Assembly: GCA_011364925.1 (NCBI GenBank)
Contig: RDOA01000063.1
Span: forward strand, 1-17,879
Length of the DNA stretch: 17,879 nt
Source of the DNA: Promethearchaeota archaeon
Lineage (GTDB): Archaea > Asgardarchaeota > Lokiarchaeia > Sigyniarchaeales > SOKP01
Direction: 5' to 3'
This document shows, in pieces, positions 2,323 to 6,569 of this stretch. A program made the position numbers and the translations under genes. A model generated the notes under the pieces. That model was not told the DNA's origin. It saw only the letters and a program-made list of their open reading frames with translations, and ran no database searches. Each line of letters begins with the position of its first letter. Position 1 is the stretch's first letter.

Positions 2323-2805
2323 TTAATCTGCTTCCGTGAGTAGTGTTACTTTCCCACCAGCAGATTCGATTTTCTCAATTGCTCGTTTTGAGGCTTTATT
2401 TACTGTAAGATTTACTTTTTTGTTAATTTCTCCGCGGCCTAGGATTTTTTGGATATTAATATCCTTAAGATTTATAGAGTAAGTATTTCCTGACTTCGTT
2501 GCGACATTTTTTACGGTGAGATCGTCAATTTTTGAATCTAAATCTTTTATATTAAGTGTATTTATATGGTAGATACGCCTGATGTCTTGGGGTCGTTTAA
2601 ATCCTCTTTTTCCTAAATCCCAATCAGGATCAGGAAATCCTAGTTCTTTTTGTTTGAGATAATAAGATTTCATACTCTTTTTCCATTGTGTAGTTTTTCC
2701 CCTACCAACTCTCTGACCTGTTTTTCTATGTTGTCCAACTTTACCGTACCCTTGAGTGCGAGTTCCTCTCTTTTTCCGAATCCTTTTTGGAAATTTTCTC
2801 GTTAT
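2323..2805 (-). CDS. rpl15: 50S ribosomal protein uL15 (160 aa), non-canonical ATA start
   Basis: Frame stays open 44 codons above the ORF-track ATG and encodes the uL15 N-terminus TRKFPKRIRKKRGTRTQGYGKVGQHRKTGQRVGRG; C-terminus KILGRG...ASKRAIEKIESAGGKV; SD AGGTGAT at 2811-2817. Confidence 0.93.
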   Translation of the reverse strand: MTRKFPKRIRKKRGTRTQGYGKVGQHRKTGQRVGRGKTTQWKKSMKSYYLKQKELGFPDPDWDLGKRGFKRPQDIRRIYHINTLNIKDLDSKIDDLTVKNVATKSGNTYSINLKDINIQKILGRGEINKKVNLTVNKASKRAIEKIESAGGKVTLLTEAD

Positions 2806-2823
2806 AATATATCACCTTTTAAT

Positions 2824-3360
2824 TTATATCATTTTATGAATCAGTTCATTAATAAACTGATCTATATAACCCAAAGTTCCTCCTTCATTATAGTGTTTTT
2901 TGATTGTTCCACGATGTCCTTTTCTAGGAGGATGCAACCGAAAAACTGGCTTAATTTTATACACATCCTGAGTCCTATATTTTACTTCTCCCGATAGTAA
3001 AGCTTTAGAGAACTCTTTTAAATTCTTGTATTTAGTGAGATTCTTGATATGTTCATCAGTGAGTGGTTTATTTCCCTCTAGTTTCCCTCTTGCTCTTAAC
3101 AGTCTTAACAGAGTTTTCTCATCGATTTCCCCATAAGCAATATAGTCTTTACATTTTTTTAGCATCCCCAAATAACTGACATCCCCCCATATAAGCACTC
3201 CATGATTCACTTTAAACATTCTTAACATTTTTAACGTGTCTGAAATTGAACGCTTCATCCCTGGAGCACCTCTTATACGAACTGCAAAATATAACGCTGG
3301 AGGTTTGGTTACTTTCATTTTTGATTTCTTTCTTATTAATACATTATTTTCTGCCATCAT
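2824..3360 (-). CDS. rpl30: 50S ribosomal protein uL30 (L7e-like long form)
   Basis: AVRIRG, TLKMLRM, KDYIAYGEID, FRLHPPRKG; SD-like GAGTGGTG ahead of ATG ATG (start 3360 or 3357). Confidence 0.95.
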   Translation of the reverse strand: MMAENNVLIRKKSKMKVTKPPALYFAVRIRGAPGMKRSISDTLKMLRMFKVNHGVLIWGDVSYLGMLKKCKDYIAYGEIDEKTLLRLLRARGKLEGNKPLTDEHIKNLTKYKNLKEFSKALLSGEVKYRTQDVYKIKPVFRLHPPRKGHRGTIKKHYNEGGTLGYIDQFINELIHKMI

Positions 3361-3376
3361 GTACACCACTCATTAT

Positions 3377-6185: not shown

Positions 6186-6569
6186 TTAGAAGATGTAGCA
6201 AAGTGTCATGCCTCCAATATGCTTTTCCTCCGCCTCTTTGAGAGTCATAATACCTTGATTTGTCGTAAGTACAATTATTCCTAAACCAGGCGCGGGAAGC
6301 AGCCTTCTTTCAAGCGATTCAAATTGAGATTCATTATAATTAAGCCTCATTAAACCAGCACAATGGTTAATTTTTCCTAACAATGCAATTTTAAATTTTC
6401 CTTGCCTCCCATCGTCATATCTCTCAAATTCACCAATATAGGCGTATTGTTGGAAAATACGAAGCACCCTTTGGTTTAATTTTGAAGCTGGACTGACAAT
6501 CACTTCTTTTTTCCTTGCTTTTTCTGCGTTTTTAAGGTCATTACACATATCAGCCAGTGTATTTGTTAT
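6186..6569 (-). CDS. rps8: 30S ribosomal protein uS8 (127 aa), probable non-canonical ATA start
   Basis: Conserved N-terminal helix TNTLADMCNDLKNAE extends above the ORF-track ATG to ATA at 6567-6569; GYIGEFE-type motif, DDGRQG, TTNQGIMT; SD GAGGTG at 6576-6581. Confidence 0.93.
   Translation of the reverse strand: MTNTLADMCNDLKNAEKARKKEVIVSPASKLNQRVLRIFQQYAYIGEFERYDDGRQGKFKIALLGKINHCAGLMRLNYNESQFESLERRLLPAPGLGIIVLTTNQGIMTLKEAEEKHIGGMTLCYIF

Follow-up and report, generated by a model that had tools for sequence, protein, structure and literature searches.

In this study, we address the question of where translation of ribosomal protein uL15 begins in a member of the Lokiarchaeia in which the uL15 reading frame holds no ATG, GTG or TTG ahead of an internal methionine, Met45. 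The public gene call for this locus takes the ATG of Met45 as the start, and in this way reports 116 aa out of a protein of 160 residues. Judging from the sequence comparisons set out below, we consider it very probable that uL15 is instead made full-length, by Shine-Dalgarno (SD)-directed initiation at a near-cognate isoleucine codon (AUH; ATT, ATA and ATC are together written ATH). The window is an entire contig of 17,879 nucleotides (17.9 kb), which belongs to a 3.9-Mb MAG of 112 contigs. This genome is designated G000, and other G-numbers denote other genomes of the same genus.

The uL15 start region and the N-terminal arm

The uL15 gene lies on the minus strand in the order eL32-eL19-uL18-uS5-uL30-uL15, and its position after uL30 is that of an spc-type operon (Table 1). 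From the end of uL30 into uL15 the minus strand reads ATG ATA TAA ATT AAA AGG TGA TAT ATT ATA ACG AGA AAA TTT CCA, and between the TGA and the conserved TRKF of uL15 there are only the three codons TAT ATT ATA. Read from the ATA, the frame is open via TRKFPKRIRKKRGTRTQGYGKVGQHRKTGQRVGRGKTTQWKKS to ATG45 and ends with the TAA at 2325-2323. By a rough estimate, a run of 47 codons without a stop, such as the one ahead of Met45, would arise by chance with a probability of ~0.92^47, or ~2% at 32% GC. The SD of uL15, AGGTGAT, is fully complementary to the 3' end of the 16S rRNA encoded on contig C86 of the same genome (GGATCACCTCCT), and within the 21-gene cluster the strongest SDs are those of uL15 and uS8, the two ATA genes. 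The 21 bases before ATG45, on the other hand, contain no visible strong SD. Read-through or recoding of the TGA was rejected, only ATT AAA AGG being found between the uL30 TAA and the TGA. A second look at the minus strand reproduced all the uL15 coordinates of the sequence-only reading, together with its statements that no canonical codon precedes Met45 in frame, that the SD is perfect and that read-through of the TGA would reach nothing other than the uL30 stop. The start of uL30 itself is ambiguous, with GTG GTG TAC ATG ATG at window positions 3355-3369 (minus strand) and no clear SD; its ORF of 181 aa is longer than the ~155 aa that are typical of archaeal uL30.

Table 1. Positions of the start-region features of uL15, uS8 and aIF1 (window positions unless a contig is named)
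Feature	Position	Strand	Remarks
uL15 full-length gene, 160 codons + TAA, read from ATA	2323..2805	-	Pfam PF00828 and alignment to 9e6q_AL
ATA, likeliest uL15 start (near-cognate AUA)	2803..2805	-	orthology; 6 nt past GGTGA
ATT, alternative or additional uL15 start, one codon 5' of ATA	2806..2808	-	3 nt past GGTGA
uL15 Shine-Dalgarno AGGTGAT	2811..2817	-	perfect 7-nt complement of own 16S 3' end
In-frame TGA within uL15 SD, shuts frame upstream	2812..2814	-	
uL30 stop TAA, 18 nt 5' of uL15 ATA	2824..2826	-	
ATG45 of uL15, sole canonical in-frame codon	2671..2673	-	start in public gene call
uS8 start ATA	6567..6569	-	after GAGGTG (6581-6576) + TAAAAA
aIF1/SUI1 gene	G000:C86:10208-10534 (= L048 1426-1752)		ATT start

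The identity of the protein, named L15P in archaea and L27a in eukaryotes, and the reality of its N-terminal arm were examined by three kinds of comparison. Firstly, the C-terminal domain Pfam PF00828 (Ribosomal_L27A) matched residues 83-154 over profile positions 1-72 of 72 (E 5.4e-16). Secondly, the best match of a phmmer search against solved structures was the archaeal uL15 9e6q_AL (E 3e-17), in which chain residue 2 aligned with query residue 2 and the basic Gly-rich arm (RGxRTxGxG..GxHR) was present from that residue onwards, so that the ATA falls at the Met1 position of the solved protein. Thirdly, among the five closest species, codons 2-44 showed 7-23 synonymous vs 1-6 non-synonymous differences, with an omega of 0.02-0.06 and dS near saturation, and codons 45-159 behaved alike. 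Purifying selection on codons 2-44 indicates that the N-terminal arm is translated.

The start codon in relatives and across the genome

The uL15 gene was found in all 42 species of the genus. Aligning the start codon across related genomes, a check put forward with the sequence-only reading, gave ATG at the homologous position in eight species (G002, G004, G008, G011, G048, G049, G052 and G056), ATT in the four nearest ones (G013, G014, G024 and G044) and ATA in G000 alone; the relatives are thus not uniformly ATG. The remaining species start at the next codon, where ACG is replaced by ATG (TTG in one). A spacing of 6 nt after GGTGA is common to the eight ATG species, the four ATT species and G000, and it is also that of the ATG starts of G010 and G023. 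The five species with ATT or ATA make up a single clade (SH-aLRT 94) in a genus tree that was built without the start region, and in each of them the uL15 frame is shut three codons upstream by the TGA of the SD. Where G000 has Met45, each of the four sisters has Lys (AAA). Moreover, the first canonical in-frame codon in G024 is TTG113 (of 160), indicating that the essential uL15 of that species is not made from a canonical start and that ATT must start it. The NCBI annotation of this orthologue (MFX0046975.1) is likewise read from ATT, as a 160-aa protein with MTRKF at its N-terminus.

Beyond the genus, where one genome per species was surveyed in GTDB, uL15 with an ATT start was found in further Promethearchaeota genera, always as GGTGA + 6 nt + ATT ACA. 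A second, independent clade of this kind makes up 25 rows of a 99-row tree, 21 with ATT and 4 with a canonical codon at or beside the site, and over the whole tree five changes of the ATH/NTG label are required. ATA was present in only one of the tree's 26 non-redundant ATH-bearing uL15 sequences, that of G000. The existence of two separate ATT clades implies that the change from ATG to ATT in uL15 was fixed twice independently and retained over long divergence, which makes AUH a stable state and not a transient defect. Four sequences within the big ATT clade (L096, L120, L121 and L124) have gained GTG or ATG at the ATT or one codon before it; in these cases a canonical start seems to have been restored secondarily. 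A contig titled 'Candidatus Nanopelagicaceae bacterium' (L119, DATKTW010000178.1) carries a Loki-type uL15 that is 81% identical to that of the window; this MAG is probably mislabelled or contaminated.

A second ATA start was found in the same operon, in the gene for uS8. Its start region reads GAGGTG TAAAAA ATA ACA AAT ACA CTG GCT GAT on the minus strand, and at least 15 species of the genus have ATA as the start codon, the others having ATG, TTG or GTG. The Pfam S8 match runs from residue 4 (profile position 2), and the public call begins at Met8 (120 aa).

To what extent the rest of the genome uses such starts was assessed with a screen of stop-to-stop ORFs that have at least 20 codons before the first canonical codon and a frame-0 coding score higher than that of the other five frames. 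This six-frame comparison replaced a screen based on codon usage only, which was swamped by antisense shadow ORFs. G000 was found to contain 102 such long-leader ORFs, with an ATH codon behind an SD in 58 of them, and in the same ORFs the codon at an SD-aligned spacing of 5-7 was ATA in 14 and ATT in 12 (AAA in 4, any other in at most 2). With the strict filter, the codon at GGTGA+6 was ATT in 6, ATA in 7 and ATC in 3 cases vs ATG and TTG in 4 each and any other in at most 2. Sites resembling ATH starts occurred at 8-10 per 1000 GGTGA/AGGTG sites vs 0.2-1.3 for control motifs that were scrambled or contained TGA, and the SD-anchored census of G000 showed no enrichment of CTG or ACG starts.

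The spacing of these codons is restricted. ATH starts are found almost only 3 or 6 nt past GGTGA, which puts them in the reading frame of the TGA within the SD, in contrast to ATG, for which the spacings are 4, 6, 7 and 9; ATT or ATC at spacing 3 makes up a second class of ATH starts in G000. The spacing bias is 25:4, of which filter bias accounts for a roughly twofold excess only. The stop codon itself does not explain the ATH spacing, as judged from the control motifs that contain TGA, which failed to attract such codons; this result also spoke against read-through or recoding of the TGA.

The encoded proteins and their orthologues give a similar picture. Pfam domains begin 2-4 residues past the proposed ATH codon in a dodecin, a protein with an MGMT-type DNA-binding domain, a Pyr_redox_2 protein and uS8; in ThiF the domain starts at residue 10. 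Across the genus, the ThiF start codon is ATT in 13 cases, ATC in 1, ATG in 12 and TTG in 2, that of dodecin is ATG in 16, ATT in 12 and ATA in 2, and that of an amidohydrolase is ATA at spacing 6 in 12, four species having ATT or ATC at spacing 3. On the basis of these comparisons, ATH starts are a genome-wide and lineage-wide habit, not private to uL15.

Among the amidohydrolase orthologues L200-L204, some have GTA at SD+6 and ATT or ATC at SD+3; L201, with GTA at spacing 6, has a TGA inside the match as well, and L203 (G014) reads TGA TTT AAC TTA CAA, without any ATH or NTG. In two HdrA-like ORFs of G000, both on the minus strand, coding continues past an in-frame TGA (contig C112, ORF begin index 94099, ..TGA GGT GTT AAT ATT GGA..; contig C38, index 14157, ..TGA ACC GAG GGA GGT..), and these TGAs are candidate selenocysteine codons, not starts.

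Initiation at uL15 and the alternatives

We propose that the 16S 3' end would pair with AGGTGAT at 2817-2811, and that this pairing would bring the ATA at 2805-2803 into the P site; most likely this codon is used alongside the adjacent ATT at 2808-2806 or in its place. The CAU initiator tRNA (Met-tRNAi) would then read AUA or AUU with a third-base mismatch at C34, giving an N-terminal Met, and the SD duplex would position the codon and account for some of the stability. The sequences directly show the anatomy of the site, the orthology of the codon, the selection on the arm, the enrichment across the genome and the recurrence in further genes and species; that uL15 is initiated at this codon, which residue comes first and how efficient the process is, we infer. 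It seems that the organism and its relatives tolerate ATT, ATA and ATC as starts given a strong GGTGA-type SD 3 or 6 nt upstream. The uL15 codon would have changed from ATG to ATT in the ancestor of the five-species clade and from ATT to ATA in the G000 lineage.

Several causes of such tolerance were considered. The initiator tRNA gene, on contig C44, has the standard CAU anticodon (anticodon arm GGGCTCATAACCC), and a pattern search based on the GGG-loop-CCC arm matched this normal gene only and revealed no initiator-like gene with a different NAU anticodon. The normal gene (G000:C44, minus strand, near index 13375) seems to contain an interruption past the anticodon arm. For this 100%-complete genome, ARAGORN reported 11-12 tRNA genes and the Rfam tRNA family 24 matches, and most tRNA genes of G000 are probably intron-bearing or split. 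A general need for termination-reinitiation was not supported, since 9 of 33 ATH genes and 15 of 40 ATG genes follow another gene of the same strand by no more than 40 nt; uL15 itself starts 18 nt past the uL30 stop. Lastly, loss of the initiation factor aIF1 was rejected as the cause of ATH starts, its gene (SUI1) being present in G000.

The aIF1 gene itself starts at ATT. It begins with ATT AAA GAC GAC GAY ATT TGT in 30 of 30 loci of the genus (L259-L288), behind a leader that is nearly invariant across the genus (ATAAAGGTTGTGAAAAAAGAGT), and no canonical codon lies ahead of the Zn-knuckle Cys. The aIF1 of Sulfolobus rejects AUU in vitro, according to the work of Hasenohrl et al. as it is cited in PMC4705826. 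Taken together with the presence of aIF1 in this genome, this cited result means that efficient initiation at AUH needs explaining. One tentative explanation, to which we would give a minor chance and which is built on the analogy with IF3, is that the Lokiarchaeia have a lowered and self-tuned start stringency, in which the AUU-started aIF1 would feed back on its own synthesis; the resulting set-point would let genes with a strong SD, including uL15 and uS8, start at AUH, and the output of ribosomal proteins might thus be coupled to initiation fidelity.

Within the AUH reading, most of our belief goes to the ATA as the uL15 start and a smaller part to the ATT one codon before it. The ATA is favored because it occupies the orthologous position and because the genome as a whole prefers ATA at spacing 6. 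The proposal that uL15 starts at this ATA, which came from the sequence-only reading, is now supported by codon orthology, by selection on the arm and by the GGTGA + 6 spacing; the ATT named there as the other candidate stands as well, since sequence alone does not separate the two, and both may be used. If the ATT were the start, which we regard as possible although doubtful, the protein would begin M-I-T-R-K, and the ancestral ATT would have decayed to ATA, with a new ATT taking over one codon before it. In keeping with this, the ATT is new in the G000 lineage, the sisters carrying GAT or AAT at this position, and spacing 3 is that of a real class of starts in G000 (ATT in 5-6 and ATC in 3-4 cases) and among the amidohydrolase orthologues; at this spacing ATT occurs and ATA never does. 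Tandem in-frame ATH codons, moreover, were seen in 7 of 26 ATH genes vs ~5-10% at the codons flanking the starts of ATG genes. However, spacing 6 is the most common class among ATA starts (7-8 cases genome-wide), a lone ATA serves as the uS8 start in at least 15 species, and the position orthologous to the uL15 starts of the relatives is that of the ATA, not the ATT.

An error of assembly or sequencing, such that the true uL15 codon is ATG and the ATA a consensus mistake, is very improbable. The source is indeed a MAG of 112 contigs, but ATT, not ATG, is what the four nearest species show, the genome itself has dozens of further ATH starts, and the ATA of uS8 is common to at least 15 independent assemblies. 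A single-base consensus error from ATT to ATA may nevertheless have occurred at the uL15 of G000, the sole ATA among the ATH-bearing sequences of the tree, and the start would still be non-canonical.

We give even less credence to a truncated uL15 that starts at Met45 (MKSYY) and leaves the 44 codons upstream untranslated. The frame does offer no canonical codon other than ATG45, and the deposited product is of the corresponding length, but the arm shows an omega of 0.02-0.06 in codons 2-44 with many synonymous changes and aligns with solved uL15 from residue 2. In addition, the four sisters all carry Lys in place of Met45, G024 lacks canonical codons ahead of residue 113, and the 21 bases that precede ATG45 show no strong SD. 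The view of the sequence-only reading that a truncated protein is unlikely is borne out by the selection on the arm, the sister species and G024. A start at 2815-2813, on the GTG within the SD, with either a +1 frameshift or an A-run indel error after it, is hardly credible: a few codons of this frame can be read (GTG ATA TAT TAT AAC GAG AAA A..), with A-runs further on, but the same frame meets TGA immediately in G024 and G044 (GTG ATA TGA), and this GTG has no SD upstream and no support from the relatives.

Significance and comparison with known systems

Gene callers that accept only ATG, GTG and TTG shorten uL15 to 116 of 160 residues and clip uS8, and the same clipping affects a few percent of the genes in this and related Asgard genomes, which are widely used for inferences on the origin of eukaryotes. 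Moreover, because AUH starts the gene for aIF1 as well as genes that are essential and highly expressed, the lineage offers a natural system in which to study the proofreading threshold of e/aIF1.

The uL15 start resembles canonical archaeal starts in its leader. In Pyrococcus abyssi, the aEF1A leader GGAGGUGAUUUAAAUG is a canonical SD-led start with a 5-nt spacing (PMC6237735), and the uL15 leader shares with it the SD core GGUGA, the same anti-SD and a similar spacing (6 nt). It differs in the codon, AUA, AUU or AUC standing in place of the AUG, GUG and UUG that a 2020 review gives as the only archaeal start codons (PMC7531240). Our literature searches found no paper on ATT, AUA or AUH starts in Lokiarchaeota or other Asgard archaea.

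Mitochondria have reassigned AUA to Met, and their tRNA-Met carries f5C34. The use of AUA and AUU as initiators for many genes is common to mitochondria and to the archaea described here, whereas in the latter ATA and ATT occur abundantly within genes as ordinary Ile codons, and the gene for the initiator tRNA looks standard. Near-cognate starts in eukaryotes (CUG, GUG, ACG and AUU, in uORFs and N-terminal extensions) are policed by eIF1, depend on scanning and Kozak context, and favor first-position mismatches (CUG, GUG). They share with the archaeal starts a homologous fidelity factor (eIF1/aIF1) and the tolerance of a mismatch in the P site; unlike them, the archaeal sites are positioned by an SD and nearly all of them are third-position mismatches (AUH).

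In the way it works, the uL15 start is similar to certain starts of bacteria. SD-led AUU and AUA starts occur in Escherichia coli at infC, which encodes IF3, and at pcnB, and NCBI table 11 lists ATT, ATC and ATA as alternative initiators. As in infC and pcnB, the start codon is a third-base near-cognate of AUG behind an SD, presumably read by the normal initiator tRNA. The infC gene, which encodes the bacterial factor for start-codon fidelity, uses AUU (PMC4705826), and the aIF1 gene, which has the same architecture, does so in 30 of 30 loci here. The host, on the other hand, is an archaeon with the eukaryote-type factors aIF1, aIF1A and aIF2, its near-cognates are confined to third-position mismatches, and in contrast to the one or two regulatory genes of the bacterial cases, the starts described here extend to dozens of genes at minimum, including those for ribosomal proteins.
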